Source of the DNA: a bacterium
Lineage (GTDB): Bacteria > Patescibacteriota > Doudnabacteria > UBA920
Assembly: GCA_021791515.1 (NCBI GenBank)
Contig: JAJYWK010000012.1
Span: forward strand, 1-61,203
Reading direction: 5' to 3'
Length of the DNA: 61,203 bases
Part shown: positions 2,950 through 44,013 of the stretch, in pieces
How the letters are laid out: each line of letters begins with the position of its first letter
How positions within the stretch are numbered: position 1 is the first letter of the stretch
Position numbers and translations under genes: made by a program
Notes under the pieces: model-generated
Databases searched by the model: none
What the model was told of the DNA's origin: nothing
What the model saw: the letters and a program-made list of their open reading frames with translations, nothing else

Positions 2950-4674
2950 TCATTCTACCAATTCCCCGCCAAAGATTTTTAGCGCCTCGGCAACGGCTTC
3001 GGTAGCGCCAACCGCAGTCGCCGGCTGGTTATTTATTACCTGACCTACAACGGACAGCTTCTTGCCAACCAACTCTCCAATTACCGCAACTATCAATTGG
3101 GAATTTTTTGGTATTTCCAGACTCTTTTTATCAAAAGCAAATTTTACGCTTACGATTATTTTGCCGGGTTGGGTTTGCAGGAGCTGGGTATTTTTTAACA
3201 TACTGGCCAACGGCCCGTTAATTTCCTTGACTTTGGCGATTATTTTCGGCCAAGCCGCCTGAATTTCATCTAAGCTGGCCAAATCCCCTGTCTCCACAAC
3301 CCCAACTTCCGACTGCGGAATATTTTCTGATTCAACCCTAACAACAGGAGGTTTGTTAACATCCGACTTTACCGACATCTCAACATCACTTCCAATTATC
3401 CGACCTTCCGACTCACCGACCTTCCGACTCACCGACCTTCCGACATTCCGATTCTCCGACTCACCGATTTGCCGACCTGCCTCGCCGGCAGGCGGGCTTG
3501 CCGACTTCCGAGTTGCCGCCTCTATCCCCGCTATGAGCAACGGCACCTGCGGGACTGGTGAAAACGGCAAATCTTTATACGCCTTTAAAAACAGGCGTGT
3601 GATATAAATTAATTCCGGAACGGAAAAACTTTCTGCAAGCGTTGTAAGTTTCTCTTCATGTTGTTCTGCCAGCCCAAAATGAATTGCGCCTCCGCCGATT
3701 TTGGCAATTAGCACCTTGCGCAAAAATTCCAAAAAGTCGCGGTTAAAAATCGCGTAATCCGCGCCCTTTTGGGCAAGCTGATTCAAAAATTCCGGGACTT
3801 TTTGAGCCTCGGACTGCCGGATAATTTCCAAAAACTCTGCGGCTGTGCCAAAATCGGTAATTCCCAAAAGCTGCTCTGCTTCTTCCAGGCTGGCTAACGT
3901 GCCCAAGGTGGAAACCTTTCCCAAAAGCGACAAAGCGTCTCTTACGCTGCCTTCCGCGTTATTAGCTAACAATTCCAAAATCGAGTTATTAAAATCTACG
4001 CCTTCTTTTTTGCAAACTTCTTTCAGTAAGTCAAAAATATCCTTTGAGCTCAAGGCCTTAAAATCAAAACGTTGGGTGCGGGAAATAATAGTAGGCGGCA
4101 CTTTGCCTATTTCCGTGGTGGCTAAAATAAAAATCGCATGCTTTGGCGGTTCTTCCAAAGTCTTAAGCAGCGCGTTAAACGCGCCCTTAGAAAGCATATG
4201 AACTTCGTCGATAATAAATACTTTATAATTACCTACCGATGGAGAAAACTTTACATGCTCTATTAGTTCGCGAATATTATCCACGCCGGTATTGGATGCC
4301 GCGTCAATTTCCACTAAGTCGATAAAGTTGCCCTGCTCAATCTGCTTGCACACAGAGCACTCCCCACACGCGCCCCCCAAAGCATCAGGCAAAGCCTGCA
4401 CATTATTACTCTCCCCCTTTTGGGGGAGATGTCCGCCTTCGGCGGACAGAGAGGGCTCCGACCCGCCGATACGCCGACTCGCCGATTCACAATTCACCGC
4501 CTTTGCCATAATCCTCGCGACCGATGTCTTTCCCACCCCCCGACTGCCGGTAAACAAATAGGCATGCGCAAAACTGCCCCCAGCTACCTGGTTTTTGAGG
4601 GTTTGAATTATGGATTTTTGGCCCACCACGTCCGCGAAAATTTGGGGGCGATACTTGCGGTATAAAACAGCCAT
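2950..4674 (-). CDS. dnaX: DNA polymerase III subunit gamma/tau
   Basis: MAVLYRKYRPQIFADVVGQ, Walker A GSRGVGKTS, DEVHMLS, SRTQRF. Stop codon is TGA. Confidence 0.9.
   Translation of the reverse strand: MAVLYRKYRPQIFADVVGQKSIIQTLKNQVAGGSFAHAYLFTGSRGVGKTSVARIMAKAVNCESASRRIGGSEPSLSAEGGHLPQKGESNNVQALPDALGGACGECSVCKQIEQGNFIDLVEIDAASNTGVDNIRELIEHVKFSPSVGNYKVFIIDEVHMLSKGAFNALLKTLEEPPKHAIFILATTEIGKVPPTIISRTQRFDFKALSSKDIFDLLKEVCKKEGVDFNNSILELLANNAEGSVRDALSLLGKVSTLGTLASLEEAEQLLGITDFGTAAEFLEIIRQSEAQKVPEFLNQLAQKGADYAIFNRDFLEFLRKVLIAKIGGGAIHFGLAEQHEEKLTTLAESFSVPELIYITRLFLKAYKDLPFSPVPQVPLLIAGIEAATRKSASPPAGEAGRQIGESENRNVGRSVSRKVGESEGRIIGSDVEMSVKSDVNKPPVVRVESENIPQSEVGVVETGDLASLDEIQAAWPKIIAKVKEINGPLASMLKNTQLLQTQPGKIIVSVKFAFDKKSLEIPKNSQLIVAVIGELVGKKLSVVGQVINNQPATAVGATEAVAEALKIFGGELVE
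3401..3480. repeat. Ten tandem 8-nt units CGAYNNNC inside dnaX
   Basis: cgaccttc cgactcac cgaccttc cgactcac cgaccttc cgacattc cgattctc cgactcac cgatttgc cgacctgc, read directly. Translated as ...GESENRNVGRSVSRKVGESEGR... Confidence 0.9.
4411..4490. repeat. Palindromic mosaic modules plus 8-nt repeats inserted in-frame in dnaX
   Basis: CTCCCCCTTTTGGGGGAG, then GTCCGCCTTCGGCGGACAGAGAGGG, then cgacccgc cgatacgc cgactcgc cgattcac. Encodes SRRIGGSEPSLSAEGGHLPQKGE. Confidence 0.85.
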
Positions 4675-4841
4675 ACCCAGTAGAATTTCTTCGCAATTGC
4701 TCCCTGCATCAAAAGCCGACTAAACAATTGCTGATTTTATGTAATAATATTTACCCAATAAACGCTACTCTTTAAGACTCGCAAAGAAGGCTTTGCGAAG
4801 AAGCTCTACTGGGCATACACCCTATTATACCATTCCCCCAG

Positions 4842-5963: not shown

Positions 5964-6180
5964 GGGCCTGTTGCCGAATGTGCTTTTCAGACGAAATTTC
6001 AGAATTTCGAGCGGATTGGCACAAATAAATTTTGATGTTTATCCGCGGGATAAGAGGAAAAATTTTGGGGACAAGACGCCGTAATTACGAAATTGCATTC
6101 AAAATGACATTCGGCGACAGGCCCTTTATAACTCAAATCAGGACACAACAAAAACAGCGCTTAGGCTGCTGTAGATTGAA

Positions 6181-6837
6181 TTATTTATTAAATACAATAA
6201 CTTTATAGCCGACAAAATTCCAAAATAAAGAAACGGCTGTTGCAACCACCGCGGCAATATTTTTATCTAAATCTGTATTGGTTAAGTGCACATTGGAGGA
6301 TACCACCGAAATCAACCCGCTGTTAATCCCCAACCCAATCAAAGTTACCACAAAAAACGCGACAAATGAATGGGCTTCGTGGTTAAAATTGGATAAGTGG
6401 AAACCAAAACTTTTCCACAGCGCGCCCTCAAAGATCAAATATATAATTAATAAAATTAAATAAAACAGCCAAGTTGCGGAAAAACGGGAACCAAGCAAAA
6501 CCAAAAGAATAGAAATAACCCCCAAGGCGCCGACCAAAACCAATCTTACAACATTATTCCACAAACTTACGCCCGATTCTGAACCAAAGGCCCAAGTCCG
6601 ATTCCATAAATAGCTTTGTATCACGGCAAAAATAAAAGACACTGCCCCCATTGCCCCCAAACTCCAGCCCTGGCTAATGCCAAAAAATTTGGACAGGGTG
6701 TTTAAAATCAAAAAATTCAGCCCGGTATTTAAAAATCCAATTGCCGCAAAGCGAAAGAATTGATAAATTACGGGCTGCCGTTCCAAAAAAGCTGTTAATT
6801 TTTGCTCAAAAAAACTGGGGTTTTGGATTTTGTCCAT
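6181..6837 (-). CDS. GtrA-like membrane protein
   Basis: FFRFAAIGFLNTGLNFLILN N-terminal signature, multiple TM segments. Confidence 0.6.
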   Translation of the reverse strand: MDKIQNPSFFEQKLTAFLERQPVIYQFFRFAAIGFLNTGLNFLILNTLSKFFGISQGWSLGAMGAVSFIFAVIQSYLWNRTWAFGSESGVSLWNNVVRLVLVGALGVISILLVLLGSRFSATWLFYLILLIIYLIFEGALWKSFGFHLSNFNHEAHSFVAFFVVTLIGLGINSGLISVVSSNVHLTNTDLDKNIAAVVATAVSLFWNFVGYKVIVFNK

Positions 6838-6890
6838 TCCTGATTCCCTGCCTGCCGGCAGGCAGGTTAATTCTAAATTCTTGATTCTAT

Positions 6891-7499
6891 TTATAGCTCT
6901 TCGTCTTCGTCCAAGATAACCTTTGCCCCCTCACCCATTTCTATATCAGCATGGCTGGCGCCTTTTTTAATAACATTTTCCACCGCGGCCCAGTCAGACT
7001 CGGTATCTTTTGGCACCACAATAGTAACTTCATCGCCCGCCTCGGCCTTAAAATAAGTTAAAGAAGCCAGCAAAACCTTAAACGGTTTACCCTCGGCCAT
7101 AACCCGAAAATCTCCCTTGTCGTCCACTATCAACATGCCCAGCATTTTCTTGCGCTCGGCCGGTCCGATTTGTTTATAAATAAACGAACCGTCGTCAGCA
7201 ATCGTAAGCTTCAAAACGTCGCCTTCGATCAGTTTTGATTTGGAAGCGTAATTTGCCGGAACCGGATACTGTTTTTTGTCCGGGCCGATCATATTTTGTC
7301 CGTCAAACACGCCTTCAATAATTTTTCCGCCTTCGGACACCGTTAAAACCTGCGCCTTTTCGGAAAGCGCGGAAAGATTTGCCTTGGTGGCCGGCCCGCC
7401 CATAATTTCCCGCAATAACTGCTTGGCGGAAGAAATACTCTTTTCCGCCGAATCAATCATCTGCGCTATGAGCGCTAAATTAGATACTTTGTTATCCAT
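6891..7499 (-). CDS. Hypothetical protein (202 aa)
   Basis: Clean ORF with non-repetitive composition; no motif recognised. Confidence 0.55.
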   Translation of the reverse strand: MDNKVSNLALIAQMIDSAEKSISSAKQLLREIMGGPATKANLSALSEKAQVLTVSEGGKIIEGVFDGQNMIGPDKKQYPVPANYASKSKLIEGDVLKLTIADDGSFIYKQIGPAERKKMLGMLIVDDKGDFRVMAEGKPFKVLLASLTYFKAEAGDEVTIVVPKDTESDWAAVENVIKKGASHADIEMGEGAKVILDEDEEL

Positions 7500-15143: not shown

Positions 15144-15370
15144 AAAAATATTTTATTCCTTATTGGGTTCCCCTCTCCAATTCCTGGAGAGGGGTCAGGG
15201 GAGAGGTTAAATACTTAGGATTCAAACCTCTCTGCCCAGCTCCACTTTCCAGTAATTATTCATTGGGGGGCAATAATTTGTTAACGTTTGATAATTATCT
15301 GCCTCAAATGATTAACTCTCAGAAAGTGGGGCTGGACATCTCCCCAAGCTTTGGGGAGAAAAATATTGAA
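15144..15370 (-). repeat. Intercistronic mosaic hairpin element, long form (class I)
   Basis: Fills the rplR-stop to rpsE-start gap. Confidence 0.95.
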
Positions 15371-15748: not shown

Positions 15749-15982
15749 AATAGTTTATTCCTTATTGGGTTCCCCTCTCCAATTCCTGGAGAGGGGTAAG
15801 GGGAGAGATTAAATACTTAGGATTCAAACCTCTCTGTCCAGCTCCACTTTCCAGTAATTATTCATTGGGGGGCAATAATTTGTTAACGTTTGATAATTAT
15901 CTGCCTCAAATGATTAACTCTCAAAAAGTGGGGCTGGACATCTCCCCAAGCTTTGGGGAGAAAAATATTGAATTTTCTATAT
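15749..15982 (-). repeat. Intercistronic mosaic hairpin element, long form (class I)
   Basis: Fills the rplF-stop to rplR-start gap. Confidence 0.95.
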
Positions 15983-17365: not shown

Positions 17366-17637
17366 ATATAGCTTATTCCTTATAGTCTCCCTCTCCAATT
17401 TCCGCCAGAGGCGGATCTGCCTTAGGCATGACATGGAGAGGGAAATTTCGCGTTAGCGAAATGGGGAGAGGTTAAATCCTTGGGTTCAAACCTCTCTGTC
17501 CAGCTCCACTTTCTATCGGTTATTTATCTTCTTATTAACAATCTTTCCTAATGATGATTATTAACCTCTATTCTATAACCTTCAGAAAGTGGGACTGGAC
17601 ATCTCCCCATGCTTTGGGGAGAAAAATATTGAATGGT
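17366..17637 (-). repeat. Intercistronic mosaic hairpin element, long form (class II)
   Basis: Fills the rplE-stop to rpsN-start gap. Carries an extra CCGCCAGAGGCGG module. Confidence 0.95.
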
Positions 17638-18177: not shown

Positions 18178-18422
18178 ATATAGCTTATTCCTTATAGTCT
18201 CCCTCTCCAATTCATGGAGAGGGAAATTTCGCGTTAGCGAAATGGGGAGAGGTTAAATCCTTGGGTTCAAACCTCTCTGTCCAGCTCCACTTTCTATCGG
18301 TTATTTATCTTCTTATTAACAATCTTTCCTAATGATGATTATTAACCTCTATTCTATAACCTTCAGAAAGTGGGACTGGACATCTCCCCATGCTTTGGGG
18401 AGAAAAATATTGAATGGTCTAT
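18178..18422 (-). repeat. Intercistronic mosaic hairpin element, long form (class II)
   Basis: Fills the rplX-stop to rplE-start gap. Confidence 0.95.
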
Positions 18423-19764: not shown

Positions 19765-20007
19765 AATAGCTTATTCCTTATAGTCTCCCTCTCCAATTCA
19801 CGGAGAGGGAAATTTCGCGTTAGCGAAATGGGGAGAGGTTAAATCCTTGGGTTCAAACCTCTCTGTCCAGCTCCACTTTCTATCGGTTATTTATCTTCTT
19901 ATTAACAATCTTTCCTAATGATGATTATTAACCTCTATTCTATAACCTTCAGAAAGTGGGACTGGACATCTCCCCATGCTTTGGGGAGAAAAATAATGTG
20001 CTTCGCG
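19765..20007 (-). repeat. Intercistronic mosaic hairpin element, long form (class II)
   Basis: Fills the rplP-stop to rpmC-start gap. Confidence 0.95.
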
Positions 20008-23263: not shown

Positions 23264-23408
23264 AAATAGATTATTCTTTATCGTATTTCCCCTCTCCAAT
23301 TCCTGGAGAGGGATCAGGGGAGAGGTTAAATACCTGGTTTCAAACCTCTCTGTCCCGCCTTCGGCGGGACATCTCCCCAAGCTTTGGGAGAAAAATAATG
23401 AATGAGCT
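23264..23408 (-). repeat. Intercistronic mosaic hairpin element, short form (class III)
   Basis: Fills the rplW-stop to rplB-start gap. Central hairpin GTCCCGCCTTCGGCGGGAC. Confidence 0.9.
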
Positions 23409-28336: not shown

Positions 28337-30517
28337 TTACATTCCCTTACGCACGTTAATCCCCTGCCGGCTTTCAATAATTTTTTCCGCCACATTTCTT
28401 GGTACTTCGGCGTAGTGGTCAAATTCCATTGTGTAGGAAGCCTGACCCTGGGTCATACTGCGAAGAGCGGTGGCATAGCCAAACATTTCGGACAATGGCA
28501 CAAAAGCGTCTATAACCTTTAAGTGCAAGCGGTCGGTCATTTCGTTAATTTGCGCGCGTTTGGAATTCAAATCCCCAATCACGTCGCCCATGTTGGATTC
28601 CGGCGTAATAACCTCCACTTTCATAATCGGTTCCAAAATAATCGGATCAGCTCGCTTTACCACTTCCTGAAGACCCTTACTGGCCGCGATTTTAAACGCC
28701 ATTTCACTGGAGTCAACTTCGTGATAGCTTCCATCGTAAAGCGCGATGCGGAAATCCACCAAAGGATATCCGGCAATAACGCCATTAGCAGCGGATTCCT
28801 GAATACCTTTGTCAACAGGTTTAATAAATTCTTTCGGAATGACGCCGCCGACAATTTCGTCCACGAATTCATAGCCCTTGCCGCGCTCTAAAGGCTCAAT
28901 GCGCAAGTATACATGGCCGTATTGACCCTTACCGCCCGACTGGCGAATGTATTTGCTCTCGGCTTCGGCGGTCTTTTTTATAGTTTCCTTGTAAGCCACT
29001 TCCGGTTTGCCCACATTGGCTTCCACTTTAAATTCGCGCTTCATTCTGTCCACGATAATTTCCAGGTGCAGTTCGCCCATACCCGAAATAATAGTCTGCT
29101 GGGTTTCTTCGTCCCCGCGAATGCGGAAGGTCGGATCTTCTTCAGCGAGCTTGCTTAAAGCAATGCCCATTTTTTCCTGGTCAGCTTTGGTCTTGGGTTC
29201 AATGGACATGGAAATAACCGGCTCGGCAAACTTGATGGACTCCAGCATCATAGGCTTGTCCACGTCGCACAAAGTGTCGCCGGTAAAAGTATTTTTCGGG
29301 CCGACCAGCGCGCAAATGTCGCCGGCAAAAACTTCCTTAACCTCATCGCGCTGGTCCGCGCGCATTCTTACAATGCGTCCTACGCGCTCCTTGTCGCCGG
29401 TGCGCGCGTTAAGCACGTACGAGCCGGCTTCCAATTTTCCGGAATAAACGCGGAAAAAACACAGCCGGCCCACAAACGGGTCAGTGGCAATTTTAAAAGC
29501 CAAAGCCGTAAACGGCTCGTCGTCGGAGGGCTTTCTTTCTATTTCCGCGCCGGTTTTTAAATCGTGGCCTTTTACGTTGCCACGGTCTACCGGAGAGGGC
29601 AAAAAGTTAGTAACCGCGTCCAAAACTGTCTGCACAATAATCCCGCGCCCGTCGCCGCCTAAAACCGGGAAGAACTTGCCGCCCTGCACCGCCTTGCGAA
29701 TCGCGCTTAAAAATTCGGCTTCGGTTAATTCCTGACCGGCTAAATATTTTTCCATTAAAGCATCATCGCTCTCCACCACTTTTTCCAACAGCCGGTGGCG
29801 GTACTCTTTAGCCTTCTCCAGCATATTGGCCGGCACTTCTCCTACCGTGAATTCCTTATCCGTAAAATCTTTATAGGTATAGGATTTCATGTTAATCAAA
29901 TCCACCACGCCGTTGATTTCTTTTTCAAAACCAATTGGCAGTTGAATCGGAAAAGCATTCGGAGACAGGCGCTTGTGAATGGAATCCAAAGATTTGTAAA
30001 AATCGCCGCCGGTTTGGTTGATTTTATTAATAAAGCACATTCTGGGCACGCCGTATTTATCGGCCTGGCGCCAGACGGTCTCGCTTTGGGGCTCCACGCC
30101 CATTTTTCCGTCAAAAACTACAACCGCGCCGTCCAAAACGCGGAGCGATCTTTCAACCTCTACGGTAAAGTCCACGTGGCCCGGGGTGTCAATAATGTTG
30201 ATTTTGTGCCTTGCCCCGTTAAATTTCGCCGCAGGCGAACCGGCTTCGCCGGATTTAACGGGGTGAAGTATCGCCGGCGCTAATTTAATAAATTTCGGTT
30301 CCCAATAGCAGGTTACCGCGGCCGAGGTAATGGTAATACCGCGTTCGCGCTCCTGCTCCATCCAGTCGGTGGTGGTTTCGCCTTCGTGCACCGCGCCGAT
30401 TTTGTGGATCATGCCGGTGTTATACAAAACACCCTCGGTAACCGTGGTTTTCCCCGCGTCAATGTGAGCAATGATGCCGATATTCCTTGTTAACTCAATT
30501 GGATACTCTCTAGACAT
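28337..30517 (-). CDS. fusA: Elongation factor G
   Basis: [17 protein letters not shown], full-length 726 aa. Confidence 0.97.
30214..30263. repeat. 50-nt hairpin element inserted in-frame in the fusA G domain
   Basis: CCCCGTTAAAT ... ATTTAACGGGG 11-bp perfect arms enclosing two mini-hairpins. Lies in the segment [29 protein letters not shown]. Confidence 0.85.
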
Positions 30518-31838: not shown

Positions 31839-31990
31839 AATAGATTTTCCTTACAATTCTCCTCTCTCCAATTCTTGGAGAGAGGCCGGGAGAGAGGTTA
31901 AAACCTAAGTTTCAAACCTCTCTGTCCCGCCTTCGGCGGGACATCTCCCCTCCGCCAGCTGGCGGACTTGGGGAGAATAATAATGTAAAA
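31839..31990 (-). repeat. Intercistronic mosaic hairpin element, short form
   Basis: Fills the rpsL-stop to rpsG-start gap; modules GTCCCGCCTTCGGCGGGAC and CCGCCAGCTGGCGG. Confidence 0.9.
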
Positions 31991-34527: not shown

Positions 34528-36252
34528 TTAGTGCCCGAAAAATCCTCTCGCGTCCTTGTCCGGGAGCATAACCAAAGTTATTTTGTTATCTTCGCAAAAC
34601 TTTTTAACTTCCTCATCGCGCACACTGCCGGAAGTGGCGAAGATGGTTGTAATGCCGGCGTTAAATAAAACCTGAACACCGTCCACAAACGGAAAAAAGC
34701 TGTCGCTGTAGGCAGTGGCATTCTTAACATCATGACCCGCGTCAGTTGCGCGTTTTATGGCCAACTGACAGCAACCCACCCTGTCCTGCTGACCCACGCC
34801 GTTTCCAAGCAGCTGATTATTTTTTACGACCGTGACCGTGTTGCTATTGCTGGTAGAGCCAATTGCCCAGGCTAAAATGATATCCGATTTTTGCTGGTCT
34901 GATAAATTCCCTATTCGTGTCATTCGGGTAGAATTCGTGTCATTCGGGTCGGACAAATTTGGTATAAATGAATAATTTGGCTGTTTTAAAAACCCGCCGC
35001 GCACGTAGCGAAAACGAGAATGTTGATCGAGAGAATTTTTAGAAAGCGATGTGAGAGCCGGATTAACTAAAAATCTGCACTTGTCGCCTTTTCGCTTCAT
35101 TAGTTCTATAGCTTTCTGATCAAAATCCGGCGCAATAATTCCGTCCAGCAAACGCCTTCCCGATTCCATACGATGAGTTAAAAGTACCTCTGCCAACTCT
35201 TCATCTATTTTAAAATTTACCATTACTACTCCGCCGAATATTGCGCGCAAATCCCCTTCCAGCATTTTTTGGATTGCGGTTTTAGCGTCTTGTGATGCTG
35301 ATGCCCCGCACGGATTTCCATGTTTGACCCCAACTGCAATATTCAATTTAGACCTCCCCTCCCCAAGACTTGGGGAGGGGTCGGGGGAGAGGTTGATTTT
35401 ATTCACATCAAACCCCGCGGCTATGTGGGTCATGGTCTGCAAGAGCCTGTCAACATCCGCCAAATTATTGTAAGACGGCGCCGTACCCGCAACTAACTTA
35501 AAATTAGAAATTGCTAATTCATCTTCAATTTCGTTTTTAAACAGCCCAGCCGGCACCTGCCAGGCATTCTCTCCGTATTTAAGGCCCAAAACTTCATGGG
35601 CAACCACGCCGCCAATCTTGCCTTGGGCATGATAGCGGGCTGAAGCCAAAGCATAATCAGACACAACAAATTCCGCTTTGGCGCAATATTTGTTTATAAA
35701 ATTTTCCCTATCCGGCTCGCCGTTTTTTAACCACTCGATTATTTTTGGCCTATCTTCGGGATCACAGACAACTATGCGTCGGCCCTTTGCCGCGCTTCTT
35801 AGCATTGTCGGCCCGCCAATATCGGTTTTTTCTAACACAGCTTCTAATCCTTTTTGTTTCTCTCCCCAAGTTTGGGGAGAGTTAGAGAGAGGTTGATGTT
35901 TAGTAATCTCCTCCGAAAGCGGATACAAATCCACGCAAACCAAATCTATAAACGGAATATGCAAACGATCCAACTCTTTTCGATCCTCATCAATATCCCG
36001 CGCCAAAAGCCCGGCATGGATTTCGCGCGACAGTGTAACCACGCGGTGGCCCAAAATCGCCCCACCGCCGACAAGCGAAGCCACATCTGTGGTCTCAATG
36101 CCGGCATCGGATAACACCTTGGCCGTCCCCCCGCTGGCTAAAATTCTAAAACCCAAAGCAACCAGTTCTTTGGCAAACTCCACAATCCCTTCTTTATTGA
36201 AAACCGAAATTAAGGCTATCCTGTTCTTTACATTTTGATCAATCATAATCAT
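34528..36252 (-). CDS. purH: Bifunctional AICAR transformylase / IMP cyclohydrolase
   Basis: MGS-like N-terminus (SVFNKEGIVEFAKEL..GGTAK), GVKHGNPCGAS, AYSDSFFPF. Confidence 0.9.
   Translation of the reverse strand: MIMIDQNVKNRIALISVFNKEGIVEFAKELVALGFRILASGGTAKVLSDAGIETTDVASLVGGGAILGHRVVTLSREIHAGLLARDIDEDRKELDRLHIPFIDLVCVDLYPLSEEITKHQPLSNSPQTWGEKQKGLEAVLEKTDIGGPTMLRSAAKGRRIVVCDPEDRPKIIEWLKNGEPDRENFINKYCAKAEFVVSDYALASARYHAQGKIGGVVAHEVLGLKYGENAWQVPAGLFKNEIEDELAISNFKLVAGTAPSYNNLADVDRLLQTMTHIAAGFDVNKINLSPDPSPSLGEGRSKLNIAVGVKHGNPCGASASQDAKTAIQKMLEGDLRAIFGGVVMVNFKIDEELAEVLLTHRMESGRRLLDGIIAPDFDQKAIELMKRKGDKCRFLVNPALTSLSKNSLDQHSRFRYVRGGFLKQPNYSFIPNLSDPNDTNSTRMTRIGNLSDQQKSDIILAWAIGSTSNSNTVTVVKNNQLLGNGVGQQDRVGCCQLAIKRATDAGHDVKNATAYSDSFFPFVDGVQVLFNAGITTIFATSGSVRDEEVKKFCEDNKITLVMLPDKDARGFFGH
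35351..35396. repeat. Palindromic module inserted in-frame in purH
   Basis: GACCTCCCCTCCCCAAGACTTGGGGAGGGGTCGGGGGAGAGGTTG; encodes LSPDPSPSLGEGRS. Confidence 0.85.
35860..35897. repeat. Palindromic module inserted in-frame in purH
   Basis: CTCTCCCCAAGTTTGGGGAGAGTTAGAGAGAGGTTG; encodes LSNSPQTWGEK. Confidence 0.85.
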
Positions 36253-38381: not shown

Positions 38382-38840
38382 TTAAACTTTCTCCGCCCAT
38401 GGTTTTAAATTCGCACCAATGTTCATTACCAAGGCAATCAAAACCAAATTTTTTATAATATATTGTCCTTCCAAAGTCGGAGTTAAAAAACTCTGCCAAG
38501 CCACAGCAGGTAAAAATACCAAGGGCATAAAGGTAGTGCCCATATGCAAAACAAACAGAGCGATGGCAATCCGGTCAAACTTCTTAAACAAAAACAAAAC
38601 GCCAATTAGCATCTCAAAAAGGGCAAAGCCAACAATAAACTGATGGAAGCTTAAAAAAGGCAGGGTTTTTTGCTGCAGCTGCATTACCAAAGGATTGGCC
38701 GGGCTGGTATCTAAAATTTTTAATATTCCAAACCAAAAGTAAACAATAAACAAAGCAAAACGGGCAAAATAAGGGTGGAATCGCCTTAATTGTTCTATAA
38801 GCTTGGCATCTAATTGTTGAATTTTTGGATGTATAAACAT
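38382..38840 (-). CDS. Hypothetical integral membrane protein
   Basis: 152 aa, 4 predicted TM segments. Confidence 0.6.
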   Translation of the reverse strand: MFIHPKIQQLDAKLIEQLRRFHPYFARFALFIVYFWFGILKILDTSPANPLVMQLQQKTLPFLSFHQFIVGFALFEMLIGVLFLFKKFDRIAIALFVLHMGTTFMPLVFLPAVAWQSFLTPTLEGQYIIKNLVLIALVMNIGANLKPWAEKV

Positions 38841-38921
38841 AAAGCTATTATAACAAATATTTTTTAAATCACCAGTTCCATTTTCCCCAAGTATCTGTTA
38901 AAATATCAAAAGGTAAATTTT

Positions 38922-39163
38922 CGGGCTGTAGCCCCATAGTAGTTCCGGCAAGCCGGAACACTACGGGGTAAATATAGCTTGCCCTGTTAAATATTTGCCC
39001 TTGTACGGGATATAGTATAATGGTAGTACGCGTGCATGGGGTGCATGTAGCCCCGGTTCGATTCCGGGTATCCCGACCACGGGCAAATAATATTTAACGG
39101 GGTGAAGTAGTACGCGTCCATGGGGTGGATGTAGTCTGGGTTCGATTCCCAGCAGCCCGACCA
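38922..39163 (+). other. Disrupted/outer tRNA-Pro(GGG)-like gene enclosing the intact tRNA-Pro
   Basis: CGGGCTG (38922-38928) is perfectly complementary to CAGCCCG (39151-39157), which is followed by ACCA. The 3' part has the anticodon arm CGTCC-ATGGGGT-GGATG and the T arm CTGGG-TTCGATT-CCCAG. The D region is interrupted by hairpin elements and tRNA-Pro. Confidence 0.5.
39006..39079 (+). tRNA. tRNA-Pro (anticodon GGG), CCA encoded
   Basis: Hand-folded cloverleaf: CGGGATA/TATCCCG acceptor, GTAT/GTAC D stem, CGTGC-AUGGGGU-GCATG anticodon arm, CCCGG-TTCGATT-CCGGG T arm, A73, CCA. Confidence 0.9.
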
Positions 39164-39270
39164 TGACGAAAATTACTACAGGGTAAAGGTGCGTGCTCGC
39201 CCCGTAGCATCCCGCCGATGGCGGGATTGCTACCGGGGTAGTCCGAGTTCGATTCTCGGCATCCCGACCA
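39164..39270 (+). other. tRNA-derived fragment (T arm + acceptor 3' strand + CCA) fused to a long hairpin
   Basis: ...CCCCGTAGCATCCCGCCGATGGCGGGATTGCTACCGGGG TAGT CCGAG TTCGATT CTCGG CATCCCG ACCA. No matching 5' acceptor strand found. Confidence 0.6.
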
Positions 39271-39348
39271 CGGGCAAATATTTCACTGTTCGTTTCCCAG
39301 TCTACCCCGTAGCCAACCGAAGGTTGTGCTACCGGGGCAGCCCGACCA
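39271..39348 (+). other. tRNA-derived fragment (acceptor 3' strand + CCA only) fused to a hairpin
   Basis: GGGCAAATATTT... CCCCGTAGCCAACCGAAGGTTGTGCTACCGGGG CAGCCCG ACCA. Confidence 0.55.
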
Positions 39349-39384
39349 TTCGATGATGCTTGTGGTCTGTGGTCGAAAGACAAT

Positions 39385-39404
39385 CCCGCCTTTGGGCGGG
39401 TTTT
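39385..39404 (+). terminator. Weak intrinsic terminator after the tRNA-Pro cluster
   Basis: CCCGCC TTTG GGCGGG TTTT. Confidence 0.4.
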
Positions 39405-39422
39405 AAATTGACAAAATTTCAC

Positions 39423-40930
39423 TTTTTTTTACCAGAAATGAAACAGCCGAGACAACAGTTTCTTATTGCAACTGGTCATCGCAATAATACTTATGTTTAT
39501 CTCGGACTGTAAGCATGCGCCATGTATTGCCCCTAGGCCACCTGGGGGGACTATGACACTGTTTGTACCCGGCCCGGAGCCGGGCTCATAACTATTTACC
39601 TCCTTAAAATTGAAAACCAAAAAAGCAAAACGCCCCTACTGGCCTGGTTGGCCAAAAGACCTAAACGATTATTGTAAAACCGAGTTGGTCTTGGACGTCA
39701 ACTGCCGTTTGGCTGCGCTTTGCGCGCTAAGCTTGACCCAAACTTTTTGGCCAAACTTACCAAGCAAGTACAGCTGCTTTAATATATAGGACTTACGCAT
39801 TTAGCCAAGTTCAAGGCATTTTCCCTGCCTGCGGCAGGCAGGCGAGGATATTTGGAGCCGTAGTTTAACTACGGCGACAAATACCGAAAGACAAAATAAC
39901 GCATCGGGGTTCCCCGAAAATCTGAAAGATTTTTGGGGTGATCAAGAAATTGGCTAAACTTTAGCGCAGTTGCCCTGAAATGCGGGCAAAGCCTGCATTT
40001 TGGGCAACTAGTGCGTAAGTTCTAAAAAATAAAATGAACGGCCCCGGGCAGTTGCTCATGATCTCGCGATCACAAGTACTTGCCCGGGGGTCTCTGCCGC
40101 CGTTTCGGTCACCCCCCTCGAGGTTGGGTGAAGCTCGTCCCACTCTGATGTAATGAGGGGAGCAAAGCTTCGACAGTGTGAGGTGCCGCAACGGACGACA
40201 GGTCTGTGGCATCAACTTTCTACCACCTTACGATGGTTTGCCCGAGTTGATTGCTCAGGCAGGCTGATGCCGAGTTGCATTTCTGGCGGTTTTTTGATGA
40301 CAGCCTGGTTGACTGCCAAAACCTGCTACCATAGCAGGCCGCCAGCGAAACGGCTAGGTGGCCGCAAATCTTGCGGCCAATCCAGCCCACTCCGCCGAAA
40401 AGAATGGCTCCGGCGGCGGAGCGGGCTCCCCATTCTCCACGCACTCCTGGCACACCAGGCCCTCCTGGTGATTACTGTCGAATGCGGGAATATGGGGTGT
40501 CATGCATCTGCACGCATGACAGAACTGAATATTTTCAGCTCCAGCCATCTCTGGCCCTCCTTAGACACCATCGCCTCGTGCTTGATTAAGGCGACGGTTT
40601 TGCACGGCCAGGTTTCCCCGGCCAGCACTGGGGTGGGTGGTTATTCCAATTTTCAGCCATTGAACGCGGGCTGAATTAACTGGACAGGAGCCTGTGGCTC
40701 ATCAGAGACCGCTCTGACTGGTTCCCTTAACCTTCACCATTAAGGAAACCAACTTACCACCCAAACTGGTGGGCGCTTTGAGAGCATTTGCCGTTTGTAA
40801 CAGCAAATTTGGAGTTCGGACATACGCCGGCGTCCCCAGCTCTCATTGCGCCCGTAACTTTTGCGAAGCTCTTACGCTCGCGGCAATAAAATCAAAATTA
40901 TTAATTTTACTGCCCCAAACATTAGGCTTT
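39423..40930. other. GC-rich, ORF-poor, hairpin-dense region (candidate large structured RNA or island remnant)
   Basis: Only short, Arg/Cys-rich or overlapping ORFs. Hand count of line 40321-40380 gives 37/60 G+C, versus 17/60 for line 38401-38460. Many perfect nested stems. Confidence 0.5.
40354..40548 (-). CDS. Small zinc-ribbon-like protein (64 aa)
   Basis: GGAGGG 6 nt before the ATG. FCHAC ... CQEC Cys pairs. Hairpin CCTGCTA-TGG-TAGCAGG plus TTTT downstream. Confidence 0.5.
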   Translation of the reverse strand: MAGAENIQFCHACRCMTPHIPAFDSNHQEGLVCQECVENGEPAPPPEPFFSAEWAGLAARFAAT

Positions 40931-40953
40931 AAAAAAACCCGCCTTGCGCGGGA
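40931..40953 (-). terminator. Intrinsic terminator ending the parB / four-helix-bundle transcription unit
   Basis: Minus strand: CCCGC GCAAG GCGGG, followed by TTTTTTT. Confidence 0.6.
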
Positions 40954-41181: not shown

Positions 41182-41544
41182 TTATTTTTTGAGACTTTTT
41201 ATTAAAACAAACAGCATTTTTTGGACTTCAGTAAGTAAACTTTCCATTTTTGAAAAGTTAATATTCCTGTATAAATCTTTACTAATTATTTCTTGAGTTT
41301 CTAATTCCGCAGATGATGCGTCTGCAATGCTTAAAAATTGAATATATTCTCCTAAATTTTTTCTTTTATATCCTTCGGCAATATTTGAAGGAATAGAAAC
41401 GGCAGCCCGACGCATTTGGCTAACTAATCCATATAGTTCGTTTTTTGGAAACTTTTCAGTAACAAAATAAACTTCCTTTACTAACTCAATTGCCTTTTGC
41501 CAAACTATTAATTCTTTAAATGAAGTTATCATTTTTGTTTGCAA
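41182..41544 (-). CDS. Four-helix-bundle protein (23S rRNA intervening-sequence protein family)
   Basis: FKELIVWQKAIELVKEVY...LVSQMRRAAVSIPSNIAEGY signature. Confidence 0.85.
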   Translation of the reverse strand: MQTKMITSFKELIVWQKAIELVKEVYFVTEKFPKNELYGLVSQMRRAAVSIPSNIAEGYKRKNLGEYIQFLSIADASSAELETQEIISKDLYRNINFSKMESLLTEVQKMLFVLIKSLKK

Positions 41545-41579: not shown

Positions 41580-42638
41580 CTACACCGTCAAATAGGTTTC
41601 CCCTTCGGTACCCTTAGGCTCTGCCATCTTGTGTACAATCTCATTCAACTCCTCTTCGCTGTAAAAATCTATGGTAATTTTTCCGCCATCGCCCTGGCGC
41701 TGGATTTTTACCAAAGTACCCAGTTTGCCCCTAAGTTCGGTTTCTATGGCCATTAATTTTGGATCCGGCGTGGCGGCATCCATGGCCCGCTTTTGAGTTA
41801 TGTCGCGCACTTTTGTTTCCACCTGGCGCACGTTTAAGCCCTGCTCCAAAACCATCTTATACATTATAAGCATGCGGTCTATGTCATTGAGGCCCAAAAT
41901 CGCCCTTGCGTGACCTTCGGTAATTTTGCCTTCTATTAACGCGCGCTGGATTTCCGCCGGCAAATTCAGCAAACGCACGGTATTGGCCACCGCCGGGCGG
42001 GATTTGCCAACCTTTTTGGCCACCTGCTCCTGGGTCATATTAAAGGTCTTCATCAATCTATCGAAGGCCATGGCTTCTTCTATGGGGTTTAACTCCTGCC
42101 GTTGAATATTTTCTATAAGAGCCACTTCCAGCTTGGTCTGGTCTACCATCGCCTCCTTAATTATGGCCGGAACCTTTTCTATGCCCGCGAGCTGGCTGGC
42201 CCTAAAGCGCCTCTCGCCCACCACCAATTCATAACCGCCGGGCGTTTTGGTTACCACCAAGGGCTGAATCACCCCGTGCTCTTTAATGGAATCTGCCAAT
42301 TCTTTTAGCGCTAAGGGTTCAAAAGTTTTTCTGGGCTGGAAAGGATTGGGTACGATTTTTGCCACTTCAATTTCCTGAATTTGCGCGTCGGCATAAGAAA
42401 CCCTGTCGTCAGCCGGGGCACTAACCGCAGTTGGCTGATTAGCCGCCGGCCCAAGACCAACCGGCGCCGGGATCTGAAAATCATTCCGATTTAAAGGCTC
42501 AACCGCCCCAGTAGCAGTCGCTCCGACGTTCGTCGTCTCCACTACGGGGTAAACCGGTTGAGCCTTTGGCAAAACGGCCGGGGCCAGAGTGTCCAAAGGC
42601 TGAATACTAATATTTGGTTGTGGATTTATAGCGTCCAT
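41580..42638 (-). CDS. parB: ParB/Spo0J chromosome partitioning protein
   Basis: LVVGERRFRASQLAG box, HTH TQEQVAKKVGKSRPAVANTVRLL. Confidence 0.9.
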   Translation of the reverse strand: MDAINPQPNISIQPLDTLAPAVLPKAQPVYPVVETTNVGATATGAVEPLNRNDFQIPAPVGLGPAANQPTAVSAPADDRVSYADAQIQEIEVAKIVPNPFQPRKTFEPLALKELADSIKEHGVIQPLVVTKTPGGYELVVGERRFRASQLAGIEKVPAIIKEAMVDQTKLEVALIENIQRQELNPIEEAMAFDRLMKTFNMTQEQVAKKVGKSRPAVANTVRLLNLPAEIQRALIEGKITEGHARAILGLNDIDRMLIMYKMVLEQGLNVRQVETKVRDITQKRAMDAATPDPKLMAIETELRGKLGTLVKIQRQGDGGKITIDFYSEEELNEIVHKMAEPKGTEGETYLTV

Positions 42639-43042
42639 TGGTCTTTCTCCCCTCCTCTTGATGCAAGAGGAGGCCGGGAGGAGTTTAATTCTGTGGTTAT
42701 CACCTGAATTACACCGTCAATATTATTTAAAACTTCATTATTCCAAAATCTTAAAACTTTAATATGATTCTCGTTTAAAAATTCGGTTCTTAGCTTATCA
42801 TGACTTTTATCAGCTTCCCGGGAGTGCTGTCCGCCGTCAACTTCTATCGCCAACCTGCAAAACGGACAATAAAGATCTAAAATATAATCCCCGACGCTGT
42901 ACTGGCGAAAAAATTTTAACCCTAACAGCTTTTTATTCCTTACGCAATTCCAAATTTTTCTTTCCGCTTCTGTTTGGGTTTTTCTTAAGGATTTTCTAAA
43001 ATTTTTCTTATCAGGATTGTTATAAATGGAATTATATACCAT
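42626..43042 (-). CDS. DUF559 (Vsr-like) endonuclease-domain protein
   Basis: TEAERKIWNCVRNKKLLGLKFFRQYSVGDYILDLYCP..LAIEVDGGQH...VLRFWNNEV. Confidence 0.8.
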   Translation of the reverse strand: MVYNSIYNNPDKKNFRKSLRKTQTEAERKIWNCVRNKKLLGLKFFRQYSVGDYILDLYCPFCRLAIEVDGGQHSREADKSHDKLRTEFLNENHIKVLRFWNNEVLNNIDGVIQVITTELNSSRPPLASRGGEKDQWTL

Positions 43043-43117: not shown

Positions 43118-43357
43118 TGGTGCCGGTGGTCGGAGTCGAACCGACATGCCGTTAGGCGCGCGCTCTTGCCTGTCCGCCGCAGTCCCGCCGCAAGGCGGGA
43201 CGAAGGCGGAAGGCGCGTGTGCCCTGTACAAATGGTGCCGGTGGTCGGAGTCGAACCGACATGCCGTTAGGCGCGCGCTCTTGAGGCGCGTGTGTCTGCC
43301 ATTTCACCACACCGGCACCAACTGTACAGGGTAAATCTGCCATTTCACCACACCGGC
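43118..43357 (-). pseudogene. Outer tRNA-Leu(CAA) gene split by a 114-nt insert (containing the inner tRNA-Leu) and a 42-nt hairpin
   Basis: Segments 43357-43336, 43221-43211 and 43168-43118 concatenate to exactly the 84-nt sequence of the inner tRNA. Confidence 0.85.
43233..43316 (-). tRNA. tRNA-Leu (anticodon CAA), class II, CCA encoded
   Basis: Hand-folded: GCCGGTG/CACCGGC acceptor, GTG/CAC D stem, CGCGC-CUCAAGA-GCGCG anticodon arm, 13-nt variable arm, GTCGG-TTCGACT-CCGAC T arm, A73, CCA. Confidence 0.92.
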
Positions 43358-43919: not shown

Positions 43920-44013
43920 TCCGGAAAATTTATACTGCTGTTAAATTTGTCCGGAATCTATTTTCTAAAGAATGGATCCCGGACATCCCGCCAGGGCGGG
44001 ATTCCGGGATGAC
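43915..44013. repeat. GTCATYCC-type MITE-like element
   Basis: GTCATTCCGGAA ... TTCCGGGATGAC termini with an internal CATCCCGCCAGGGCGGGAT hairpin. The left end supplies the PAP2 ATG. Confidence 0.85.

Follow-up and report, generated by a model that had tools for sequence, protein, structure and literature searches.

We report that the proline tRNA locus of the DNA analysed here (the window: 61,203 nt of contig JAJYWK010000012.1, assembly GCA_021791515.1) holds one intact and probably working tRNA-Pro(GGG), at 39006-39079, flanked on either side by an arm of a palindromic element and set inside an older, broken tRNA-Pro(GGG). The whole array falls within 38922-39348, all its parts reading on the forward strand; it is common to seven independent assemblies (from NCBI, ENA and Logan) at 99.9-100% identity, and it is not an assembly artefact. 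Its neighbours are Maf, a 152-aa membrane protein, ParB and an Avd-like ORF. The organism from which the window comes is a Patescibacteria bacterium.

The inner tRNA-Pro(GGG) is intact and encodes its own CCA. ARAGORN calls it, and a covariance-model check gave a full-length match to Rfam family RF00005, scoring 60.1 bits over model positions 1-71 (39006-39076; gathering score 29). An earlier note, made from the sequence alone, had described this gene as intact and bracketed by inverted repeats, which a repeat search recovered as two pairs, I4 (38982-38995 with 39089-39102, 14 nt, 93% complementary) and I3 (38992-39012 with 39069-39089); the other features that it described are likewise all found where it had placed them. 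The element as a whole occupies 38978-39106, within the D-loop of the older gene. Its left half (38978-39005) is made up of the flank CTTG, the arm CCCTGTTAAAT, which has one mismatch to the family consensus CCCCGTTAAAT, the inner stem ATTTGCCC and TTGTA, and its right half (39080-39106) of C, GGGCAAAT, AAT, the arm ATTTAACGGGG, an exact family match, and the flank TGAA. The right half base-pairs with 38978-39000 in both the repeat search and the MFE fold, and the tRNA occupies the loop position of a recurrent interior hairpin, AATTTTGCC..GGCAAAATT. The MFE fold of the 496-nt region is a drawing of nested cloverleaves (z = -7.0), and none of 100 shuffled sequences was equally stable. Hairpins of the form CCCYRT...AYRGGG number four in the window, against 0.2 expected from shuffled sequence. 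Over 38800-39500, an Rfam search at E values up to 10 returned only tRNA, with no group I or II intron and no self-cleaving ribozyme, and the sequence past one window end, in which further tRNAs of the same genome were sought, held no tRNA.

The older tRNA-Pro survives in three pieces. Nucleotides 1-10, CGGGCTGTAG (38922-38931), agree with the L012 and L008 alleles of tRNA-Pro at 10 of 10 positions; nucleotides 11-15, TATAG (38973-38977), agree with the L012 allele at 5 of 5; and nucleotides 18-74, running from the end of the D loop through the anticodon arm, T arm and acceptor to the CCA (39107-39163), agree with L012 at 57 of 57, against 48-51 of 57 for the other alleles. Summed, the pieces equal the allele of L012, a relative, at 72 of 72 positions, and the earlier reading of one tRNA-Pro nested in another, mirroring a nearby tRNA-Leu locus, is borne out. 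So is the acceptor partner that it proposed, CGGGCTG (38922-38928), which pairs with CAGCCCG (39154-39160) in the whole-region MFE fold. The first two pieces are separated by another insert (38932-38972), recovered in a hairpin scan, which splits the old D stem after G10 and consists of TAAA preceded by the perfect-ended hairpin H0, CCCCATAG...CTACGGGG (38932-38968); it is absent from the tRNA-Pro genes of all relatives compared. The junction with the element itself is inexact, TG having been lost or AA gained, with 2-3 nt missing. When the insert is excised in silico, tRNA-Pro is called at many junctions, with a damaged D loop. The exact junction TTCGATTC(N7)CCCGACCACGGGCAAAT had no match in the metagenome collection, and a 17-mer had three chance-like matches in viral contigs, with no tRNA at any of those loci. 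The -10-like hexamer TAAAAT (38899-38904), read by eye, lies 17 nt upstream of the outer 5' end, and the plain tRNA-Pro genes of relatives have TAAAAT, TATAAT or TAAACT 15-21 nt upstream; a two-hexamer consensus promoter scan, which requires both hexamers, did not call it. Judging from the sequence, the inner copy is likely the only functional tRNA at the locus.

Beyond 39163 the earlier note had seen two further, separate units. Their hairpins and CCCGACCA ends are present (the window has just four copies of CCCGACCA, at 39072, 39156, 39263 and 39341), but they are not independent fragments: 39175-39348 is the entire composite over again, duplicated in tandem and since decayed. Pairwise alignment gives 38960-39174 and 39175-39360 as a collinear pair, marked also by the direct-repeat families D1, D4 and D6. 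Read in order, the duplicate comprises the right end of an H0-like hairpin (39175-39187), a relic of the inner tRNA (39188-39199 and 39239-39270, the latter equal to the L003 allele at 32 of 32 positions) with hairpin H3 (39200-39238) between its two parts, the arm relic CGGGCAAATATTTCAC (39271-39286), an outer T-loop relic (39287-39300), hairpin H4 (39305-39337), and the outer acceptor with its CCA (39338-39348). A terminator scan placed an intrinsic terminator of six G-C pairs followed by TTTT at 39385-39404. In each of six relatives with conserved synteny there is a single plain tRNA-Pro with a single 3' end, and 118 kb of loci from relatives contain no copy of the element family. The tRNA alleles do not track genome relatedness.

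Four kilobases from the array, a tRNA-Leu(CAA) locus on the reverse strand has the same architecture. A spliced comparison resolves the outer gene (43118-43357) into three pieces, 43357-43336, 43221-43211 and 43168-43118; its D loop is interrupted by an intact inner tRNA-Leu (43316-43233) with the arms CCCTGTACA and TGTACAGGG, and its anticodon loop by a 42-nt hairpin (43210-43169). Spliced in silico, the outer copy is identical to the inner at 84 of 84 positions, and the MFE fold of the locus has z = -5.65. A DUF559 endonuclease gene (42626-43042) adjoins this tRNA-Leu, and we considered homing through it; the gene is also found beside plain tRNA-Leu in L100 and L008, the L100 protein being 89% identical, and its presence is uncorrelated with nesting, so the idea was set aside.

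The arms around the tRNA-Pro belong to a mobile or dispersed family, CCCCGTTAAAT…ATTTAACGGGG, with 123 copies in at least 120 metagenome contigs. The conserved part is a 15-bp outer stem only, made of the 11-nt arm and four flanking nucleotides with the recurrent flank pair CTTG/TGAA; flank positions 1, 3 and 4 are paired in 69-77% of 116 copies, and positions 5-6 are unpaired. The elements are about 50-70 nt long and have no coding capacity, and their interiors, mostly two small hairpins, vary even within one genome. As regards a target-site duplication of the MITE kind, their flanks are complementary, not direct, and TG at most is shared at the tRNA-Pro junction. About 85% of the plain copies are intergenic, and in an in-silico deletion test none of 143 interrupted a tRNA or tmRNA gene. 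Besides the copy at tRNA-Pro the window has one other, CTTG-CCCCGTTAAAT...ATTTAACGGGG-TGAAG (30210-30268, forward strand), which lies antisense inside fusA (EF-G), where its in-frame translation adds 19 residues that L001 and L003 lack in both protein and DNA alignments. Fourteen of the 16 in-gene copies of the family are in frame and stop-free, reading (H/Y)PVKS...FNG(V/A), and the remaining two look like adjacent genes; on their reading frames, elements in protein genes are translated, not spliced. A tRNA was the interior of none of 150 family copies (717 kb), three of which had large interiors, and Rfam at E values up to 1 found only tRNA, and no element family, in eight element-bearing contigs. 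Copies of an AT-rich subfamily are flanked at either end by ACGCAGAT, the repeat itself being conserved between contigs; a CRISPR-like nature was rejected for it, as it occurs in single units and not in arrays. An integron attC was rejected on inspection, in that GTTAAAT matches GTTRRRY, and ATTTAAC matches RYYYAAC, but their 5'-3' order is reversed with respect to attC.

Four more nested tRNA loci were found in other contigs. L122 has a tRNA-Thr nest of three levels, L179 a nested tRNA-Gly, and L210 both a nested tRNA-Arg and a tRNA-Ser(UGA) within a tRNA-Ser(CGA), that is, within a paralogue and not an allele. Among the tRNAs of the element-bearing contigs, which were fetched solely for carrying the element, four of 26 are fully nested and one partially, against none of 22 at other loci. 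Inner and outer copies lie on the same strand in eight of eight cases and, Leu excepted, diverge by 18-39%. At L179 the leader and trailer nucleotides of the inner gene are shared by the outer one, which is partly deleted. Retroposition of a mature tRNA was rejected, since the inner genes of L122 and L179 lack CCA and hence are not cDNA copies. At L122 #2 the insert sits in the anticodon loop, as in the outer tRNA-Leu, and excising the insert from L122 #2, L179 or L210 restores no canonical tRNA. The stems of the outer copies are all still perfectly paired in the window tRNA-Pro, L122 #2 and #3, and L210, and it follows that the events are recent or that the outer copies are not dead. One and the same arm family surrounds a tRNA-Gly in L179 and a tRNA-Arg in L210, and it occurs also as a plain hairpin in a genome that holds an arm-enclosed tRNA. 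Among tRNAs flanked by arms, there was no clear case without outer relics, the tRNA-Ala of L123 being borderline.

We suggest that transcription would begin at the old promoter, whose -10 lies at 38899-38904, run through the whole array and end at the terminator (39385-39404). The arms would lengthen the acceptor stem of the inner tRNA to a helix of about 30 bp. A single functional tRNA would be freed from it by RNase P and by trimming of the 3' end, perhaps with RNase III cutting the long helix first, and the outer halves and the downstream relics would be left as waste. As to origin, a plain palindromic element may first have landed in an exposed loop of a tRNA gene, and its break-prone hairpin tip may then have been repaired by copying into it an intact tRNA-Pro allele, from the sister chromosome or from imported DNA, the copying being anchored by homology to the two halves of the broken gene. 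The product would be retained by selection because it restores the tRNA under the old promoter, and multi-level nests would reflect repetition of this cycle. Taken together, the composite anatomy, this expression route and an origin by element insertion and repair form an account that we regard as rather probable. Its least certain step is the entry of the intact tRNA into the element, which may have come about by break repair at the hairpin or by way of a tRNA-carrying cassette.

Formation at the locus is favoured over a roaming cassette because the same arms surround different tRNAs and also occur plain in the same genome, because there is no clear arm-flanked tRNA free of outer relics, because the leader and trailer nucleotides inside L179 are those of the outer gene, because the window tRNA sits at the loop of AATTTTGCC..GGCAAAATT, and because the inner genes of L122 and L179, without CCA, are not cDNA of mature tRNA. 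Some observations weigh on the other side. Inner/outer divergence of 18-39% (not at Leu) means that the repair homology anchors would be short, in blocks of 6-15 nt; the Ser(UGA) in Ser(CGA) of L210 counts against repair, being a paralogue and not an allele; and, with none of 143 plain copies in tRNA genes, the proposed first step is never seen alone. Simple schemes of replication slippage or fold-back were also considered on paper and rejected, as none of them places a whole tRNA between two arms with the 5' half ahead and the 3' half behind.

It could instead be that element and interior tRNA together form a mobile unit that inserts in the loops of tRNA genes, a selfish gene replacement whose survivors would be those insertions that fell in a cognate or decodable tRNA gene, in expressed orientation, with the cargo replacing the gene destroyed. 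We consider this unlikely, though several observations suit it: the arms are a dispersed family, L122 would record serial take-overs, the strand is the same in all eight cases, the divergence of inner and outer alleles dates from a time when each was a functional gene, which suggests a foreign inner copy, and tRNA-Ser(UGA) in tRNA-Ser(CGA) suits functional complementation better than homology. However, no arm-flanked tRNA was found at a non-tRNA site, though about 85% of plain copies are intergenic; identical arms enclose different tRNAs; none of the 150 family copies has a tRNA interior; and the first capture of the cargo is left unexplained.

Quite improbable, to our mind, is a functional nested precursor, in which the insert would be intron-like or akin to an rRNA-type intervening sequence, and the outer halves would be ligated or held together by the arms as a second tRNA. 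The nested cloverleaves of the MFE folds, the intact outer stems and the base-exact outer tRNA-Leu would all accord with it, but the outer tRNA-Pro has a hairpin in its D stem and is without a G18-G19 context, the anticodon loops of the outer tRNA-Leu and of L122 #2 are interrupted by inserts, part of the outer copy at L179 is deleted, and the second copy of the array in the window is plainly decaying. Moreover, there is no bulge-helix-bulge, since in the folds each junction is the base of a continuous helix and 3-nt bulges are lacking; Rfam gave no match to a ribozyme or an intron family; and family copies in genes are translated rather than removed (14 of 16 in frame).

Serial site-specific integration, in which integrase elements displaced 3' fragments of tRNA-Pro and their cargo was later deleted, is very improbable, even though partial tRNA genes are known to arise by integration (PMC9897764) and the multiple 3' ends do come from differing alleles. 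A 5' fragment is present upstream, the fragments are unequal (57, 32 and 11 nt) with two allele types alternating (S, R, S, R), the spacing of 84-215 nt is cargo-free, the neighbours include no integrase and form no island, and the flanking repeats are inverted and of a palindromic family, not direct; the suggestion that the repeated ends are att-site scars falls with it. We give equally little credence to ordinary tandem duplication and decay, in which chance or local templated mutation would have made the inverted repeats: the second copy is truly a decayed tandem duplicate, and the genome is rich in long intergenic hairpins, but this leaves unexplained both an allele split exactly in the D loop by a family of at least 120 contigs and the same architecture at tRNA-Leu and at four loci in unrelated contigs. 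Least credible of all is the alternative raised earlier, that 39098-39163 is a functional D-armless tRNA-like RNA; the second Pro-type unit, with its anticodon arm, T arm and CAGCCCG-ACCA ending at 39163, does exist and scores 31.8 bits against RF00005 (39098-39160), slightly over the gathering score, but its D arm is reduced to 3 bp with a 1-nt loop, its acceptor has one mismatch, its last 57 nt are the normal tRNA of a relative, and what looks like its 5' acceptor strand, CGGGGTG, belongs to the element, being the arm end plus flank that all family copies share without variation (ATTTAACGGGG + TG).

The composite read here as insertion and repair has likenesses to several known systems. In rRNA processing stems and intervening sequences, which RNase III cuts, a long leader-trailer helix surrounds a structural RNA; a structural RNA enclosed by a long helix in a longer precursor may be analogous, with the difference that here a tRNA is enclosed, the helix is made of a dispersed repeat, and RNase III cleavage is predicted only. 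The mobility of REPs depends on a tyrosine (HUH) transposase that works on single-stranded DNA, a mechanism that would suit a preference for loops. The family here resembles them as dispersed hairpins whose conserved stem base may be a protein recognition site, and differs in being without the external GTAG motif of the REP type.

Rickettsia palindromic elements (RPE) are short palindromic repeats, mostly intergenic, that also occur in frame in proteins, in tmRNA and in RNase P RNA (PMC2229807). Like RPE and MITE-like repeats, the present family has terminal inverted repeats, is non-coding and mostly intergenic, and is translated in conserved protein genes; it too is found in a structural RNA gene (tRNA-Pro), in fusA and in 14 in-frame copies. 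By analogy, the element may be said to work like an RPE-like palindromic insertion element, a likeness of function and not of sequence kinship. It differs in its length (about 50-70 nt against 105-146 nt), in conserving only the 15-bp outer stem while the interior is free to vary, in its spread over many environmental contigs rather than one genus, and in that some copies enclose a complete tRNA inside the cognate gene, which is unreported for RPE in the literature searched.

Integrative elements that target tRNA genes restore tRNA function and leave fragments of the old gene (PMC9897764). The likeness to phage, ICE and island integration thus lies in the target, in the restoration of function by incoming DNA and in the relics that remain. 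In contrast to the 3' tRNA part, integrase, kilobases of cargo and direct repeats of those systems, a whole tRNA with inverted arms of about 25 nt lies here in a loop of the old gene, with both 5' and 3' relics. The disrupted tRNA genes of archaea include non-canonical and multiple introns, split tRNAs and transposing tRNA introns. In archaea, the D loops and anticodon loops of tRNA genes are interrupted by short, hairpin-forming, mobile-like inserts (PMC10714607), and in Caldiarchaeum a mobile-element event is described as having left a 5' tRNA fragment next to a newer tRNA gene (PMC3293823). Short hairpin inserts at these two loop positions are common to both cases. However, archaeal inserts are cut at a bulge-helix-bulge by the splicing endonuclease and the exons are used, whereas the present host is a bacterium, the junctions show no motif of that kind, copies in genes are translated, and a second complete tRNA would supply the function.

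To our knowledge, the interruptions so far recognised in bacterial tRNA genes are limited to self-splicing introns and to integrases acting at the 3' end. The loci described here point to a new kind of disruption, in which the D loop or anticodon loop is broken by tiny palindromic repeats and rescued by an enclosed tRNA, a pattern that recurs in unrelated contigs and reaches three levels. For annotation, relics such as the 31.8-bit unit are prone to being miscalled as odd tRNAs. The arm family has a wide distribution, contributes residues to proteins such as EF-G, and was found neither in Rfam nor in the literature searched. These loci also offer a bacterial counterpart, and a testable link, to the archaeal question of how disrupted and split tRNA genes originate. 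Beyond this, we would tentatively entertain the idea that an undescribed process may overwrite tRNA genes from the inside in small-genome environmental bacteria, whereby an element that carries or captures a tRNA kills the cognate gene, borrows its promoter and becomes indispensable, with take-overs that stack. If true, such inside overwriting would be a new selfish gene-replacement element, as well as a new route of tRNA allele turnover via horizontal transfer.

An intact tRNA-Pro(GGG) gene lies on the forward strand at 39006-39079 (ARAGORN; Rfam, 60.1 bits), and the repeat finder confirmed the inverted repeats described around it in the earlier note (38982-38995 / 39089-39102, 93%; second pair 38992-39012 / 39069-39089, 86%). 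The outer tRNA-Pro that the same note had proposed is real. The tRNA-Pro allele of a distant relative (L012), CGGGCTGTAG TATAG TG GTAGTAC...CAGCCCGACCA, is present in the window as three pieces, 38922-38931 (10/10), 38973-38977 (5/5) and 39107-39163 (57/57, with other alleles matching at 48-51 of 57 positions only). Two inserts separate these pieces: a 37-nt hairpin followed by TAAA, placed after G10 (38932-38972), and a palindromic element of 129 nt in the D loop (38978-39106), whose terminal inverted repeats, the arms, hold the intact gene. The D-loop TG has been lost or overlapped at the junction, with no other loss. The inner gene represents another allele (CGGGATA/TATCCCG); it shares 82% identity with the outer one, and the differences are compensatory in three stems. 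In the minimum-free-energy fold of 38915-39410, CGGGCUG (38922-38928) pairs with CAGCCCG (39154-39160) and the inner cloverleaf is drawn within the long arm helix (z = -7.0; 0 of 100 shuffles equally stable). A second tRNA-like match at 39098-39160 (31.8 bits under permissive thresholds, gathering score 29) is less complete, since its D arm is collapsed and its acceptor has one mismatch; ARAGORN reports two tRNAs in the window, this Pro(GGG) and a Leu(CAA).

The tRNA 3' part occurs as three direct copies (39023, 39107 and 39214 by the repeat finder), and all four copies of CCCGACCA in the window lie at this array. Two further units had been noted downstream; they are indeed tRNA 3' remnants, but not separate units. 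Since 39175-39360 is collinear with 38960-39174 in pairwise alignment, they are the inner and outer relics of one decayed tandem copy of the whole composite (39175-39348). In both copies the hairpin right end ACTAC(G/A)GGGTAAA leads into the inner T arm, acceptor and CCA, then CGGGCAAAT..ATTT(A/C)AC, the outer T loop, the outer acceptor and CCA, and the first trailer bases; the decayed copy differs by large deletions and two extra hairpins (39200-39238 and 39305-39337). Within it, 39239-39270, the 3' part of one of the fragments noted earlier, is identical (32/32) to the allele of another relative, L003. The array is no assembly artefact, being 99.9-100% identical across seven independent assemblies.

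The resemblance to the tRNA-Leu locus, also proposed earlier, holds, and there the reconstruction is base-exact. The inner tRNA-Leu(CAA) (43233-43316, reverse strand; ARAGORN; Rfam, 53.4 bits) occupies, with arms CCCTGTACA / TGTACAGGG on its two sides, the D loop of an outer gene whose pieces (43357-43336, 43221-43211 and 43168-43118), once joined, equal the inner tRNA at 84 of 84 positions; a 42-nt hairpin forms a second insert between positions 33 and 34. The region folds in the same manner as the tRNA-Pro locus (z = -5.65). At both loci the inner-tRNA leader is complementary to the CCA plus trailer, so that the acceptor stem continues into the arm helix. Directly downstream of tRNA-Leu is a gene for a DUF559 (Vsr-like) endonuclease (42626-43042, reverse strand), found at the same place in relatives L100 (527-943) and L008 (~420), while in L001 a LAGLIDADG-like ORF (6336-6683) takes this spot; we read the tRNA-Leu 3' flank as a landing site for selfish endonuclease genes, independent of the nesting. 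In relative L005, a hairpin GCCCTGCACC...GGTACAGGGC (~6860-6900) with the same ends as the arms of the window's inner tRNA-Leu lies ~90 nt downstream of a plain tRNA-Leu.

Because a putative -10 hexamer, TAAAAT (38899-38904), lies 17 nt upstream of the outer tRNA-Pro 5' end (15-21 nt upstream of the plain genes in relatives) and no promoter-like site was found between the arm and the inner tRNA-Pro, the whole array is probably a single transcript, ending at 39404 with the intrinsic terminator 3' of the array (39385-39404). From it the inner tRNA would be freed by RNase P and 3' trimming, possibly following an RNase III cut in the arm helix. The outer tRNA-Pro has a hairpin in its D stem and a damaged D loop, and the outer tRNA-Leu an insert in its anticodon loop; most simply, the outer halves would be waste.

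Nesting of this kind recurs on unrelated metagenome contigs. The retrieved loci contain 50 distinct tRNAs flanked by 45 nt or more on either side; computed for all of them, the leader-trailer duplex energy had a median of -12 kcal/mol, against -37 and -30.5 kcal/mol for the window's two tRNAs. Five tRNAs at -28 to -42 kcal/mol stood on contigs retrieved solely for carrying the palindromic element, and these loci were interpreted by eye. Contig L122 (2040-2345, reverse strand) holds a three-level tRNA-Thr nest: the innermost tRNA-Thr(CGT), with arms CCCCCACACCTA / TAGGTGTGGGGG and TGAA, interrupts a second tRNA (GCCGCCT/AGGCGGC) at its anticodon loop; that tRNA, between arms CTTG-CCCCGCCAAAT / ATTTGGCGGGG-TGAA, in turn interrupts the D loop of the outermost one, tRNA-Thr(CGT) (GCCTGGA/TCCAGGC). 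The fold of the locus shows the same nesting (-139 kcal/mol). In L179 (990-1160), an older tRNA-Gly, now partly deleted, has its D loop interrupted by a tRNA-Gly(CCC) between arms TCCCGCACTAAA. L210 has two cases: at 1000-1230 (reverse strand), a tRNA-Arg flanked by arms CCCCGCACTAAAA interrupts the anticodon loop of an older tRNA-Arg, whose D loop also contains a plain hairpin with the same arms, and at 2285-2490 a tRNA-Ser(UGA) lies within a tRNA-Ser(CGA). L170 (7520-7640, reverse strand) retains an upstream 5' fragment only. In-silico deletion gave junction-spanning tRNA predictions at these loci. Nested loci number four, plus one partial, among 26 tRNAs in element-bearing contigs versus 0 of 22 in other loci (one-sided Fisher p 0.01-0.02 with the window's two tRNAs added).

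In every case the inner and outer copies lie on the same strand. Their alleles are 61-82% identical (100% for tRNA-Leu), and nearly all stems are intact, apart from a single mismatch in the L179 acceptor and another in the anticodon stem of the second tRNA of L122; the alleles therefore diverged as working genes. Since the inner genes of L122 and L179 are without CCA, they derive from genes and not from cDNA of mature tRNA. The set of outer genes comprises Pro(GGG), Leu(CAA), Thr(CGU), Gly(CCC), Ser(CGA) and an Arg, mostly C34 or G34 isoacceptors, whose codons can usually be read by a U34 isoacceptor too.

The arms belong to a dispersed family. A scan of the window for CCCYRT...AYRGGG hairpins found four, versus 0.2 expected: the hairpin at 38932-38968, the tRNA-Pro arms, the tRNA-Leu arms, and a 50-nt element at 30214-30263 with arms CCCCGTTAAAT...ATTTAACGGGG and flanks CTTG...TGAAG, the same as in the tRNA-Pro element. 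The pattern CCCCGTTAAAT N(15-45) ATTTAACGGGG was found on at least 120 contigs of a metagenome collection, with 123 copies among the matches listed; no copy was found in a viral collection or in 118 kb of relatives' loci, and no Rfam family matched. Interiors differ even among copies on one contig; of 116 copies among the matches listed, 66 form two small hairpins inside and 48 form one. Four nucleotides outside CCCC/GGGG prolong the stem, positions 1, 3 and 4 being Watson-Crick in 69-77% of the copies listed and positions 5-6 unpaired; at position 2, 51% of them have T·G or C·A, and the element is therefore strand-asymmetric. An AT-rich subfamily (L157 1570-1680, L220 1515-1605 and ~12 other loci) has an unstructured ~42-nt interior with the direct repeat ACGCAGAT(T) on both sides; it occurs as single units and not in CRISPR-like arrays. 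On the 1.3-kb contig L180 (68-185 and 568-730, reverse strand), group II intron domains (RF01999, 66.9 bits) adjoin two copies of the element, together with an RT-7 RNA match that is below threshold (76.8 bits, gathering 116.8).

When in protein genes, the element is translated and not spliced from the mRNA. The copy at 30210-30268, inside fusA (28337-30517, reverse strand), is translated in frame and adds 19 residues to EF-G directly after FIKLA, where relatives have GDV-K or KDT-K and L001 and L003 have no insertion. Among the matches listed, 19 of 123 copies lie in long open frames, 16 of them reading (H/Y/D/N/C)PVK...FNG(V/A). Among 16 in-gene copies flanked by 70 or more open codons on each side, 14 keep the same frame without a stop, and the other two resemble adjacent genes; the family is thus tolerated by translation, not removed from RNA. 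PurH (34528-36252) has several short lineage-specific insertions (e.g., LSNSPQTWGEKQKG, DPNDTNSTRMTRIG), which in different relatives (L001, L003, L005) fall at the same three places and may be further translated repeat insertions.

Rickettsia palindromic elements likewise lie in protein genes, where they are translated and not removed, and they are also described from the genes for tmRNA and RNase P RNA (PMC2229807); the present element behaves like an RPE or MITE-type palindromic repeat. The outcome is similar to that of integrative elements that target tRNA genes and restore the gene they hit, and to archaeal disrupted tRNA genes, but by its defining features it is neither. In the full-text literature we found no description of such palindromic elements in Patescibacteria or of nested bacterial tRNA genes, and none of a complete tRNA between palindromic arms in a loop of its own gene kind, up to three levels deep.

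The window holds other structured features. A GC-rich stretch of ~1 kb (~39950-40950) without a credible ORF (a 173-aa ORF, 40153-40674, has no Pfam match) runs up to a bidirectional terminator-like hairpin near 40928-40950 and had no match in Rfam; between ParB and tRNA-Pro, relatives too have stretches poor in ORFs, and strain variants L086 and L088 part from the window at ~39958. It is a candidate large, unannotated structured RNA. A second MITE-like repeat of ~105 nt, with terminal inverted repeats TGTCCAGCYCCACTTTC...GAAAGTGGGGCTGGACA, has at least six copies, all intergenic in the ribosomal-protein region (2801-2906, 15233-15338, 15835-15940, 17497-17601, 18278-18382 and 19864-19968). 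The intergenic spacers 4673-4816 and 5964-6124 each fold over their entire length into one long hairpin (140-160 nt; -57 and -55 kcal/mol; ends CCCAGTAG...CTACTGGG and GGGCCTGT...ACAGGCCC), near-identical structured leaders (23313-23400 and 31885-31970; GGGAGAGAGGTTAAA..CCTCTCTGTCCCGCCTTCGGCGGGACATCTCCCC) adjoin reverse-strand gene starts, and hairpin tips GTCCCGCC-loop-GGCGGGAC recur at 43986, 56019 and the tRNA loci. Adjoining ParB is an ORF of the 23S-rRNA-intervening-sequence protein / Avd family (41182-41544, reverse strand), with no reverse transcriptase seen nearby.

As to origin, we favour repair at the locus. A plain element would insert into the loop of a tRNA gene and its hairpin tip would break; with the gene halves as anchors, synthesis primed by microhomology at both ends would then copy in an intact allele, taken from a sister chromosome or from imported DNA, yielding 5' half, arm, whole tRNA, arm and 3' half. 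Alternatively, an element already carrying a tRNA might transpose into tRNA loops and survive only where its cargo complements the loss. Against such a cassette, and for repair, different tRNAs are enclosed by one and the same arm family, which is also present as a plain hairpin within the same genome; the retrieved loci offer no clear arm-flanked tRNA without outer relics (the tRNA-Ala of L123 is borderline), though ~85% of plain copies among the matches listed are intergenic; the L179 inner gene has leader and trailer bases in common with the outer gene; and the window's inner tRNA-Pro sits at the loop position of a recurrent interior hairpin. Telling against repair are the short homology blocks between inner and outer alleles, the paralogous L210 Ser pair, and the absence of any tRNA gene broken by a plain element alone (0 of 143 plain copies).

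The neighbouring genes are bacterial (Maf, PurH, ParB, PAP2, BacA, SHMT), the closest named relatives being Patescibacteria, Candidatus Doudnabacteria (Maf 55-66%, EF-G 90-92% identity), which keep the order LeuRS ... SHMT - PAP2 - tRNA-Leu - ParB ... tRNA-Pro - Maf - PurH. In every relative, tRNA-Pro and tRNA-Leu are each represented by one plain gene with a single 3' end, and the complexity of the window's loci is therefore lineage-specific. The tRNA-Leu of the window is shared at 100% identity with L008 (Maf 55% identical) and is very different from that of the closer L100, while its outer tRNA-Pro is that of L012 (Maf 42% identical). The tRNA alleles here are out of step with genome relatedness, which suggests that they are frequently imported or exchanged.
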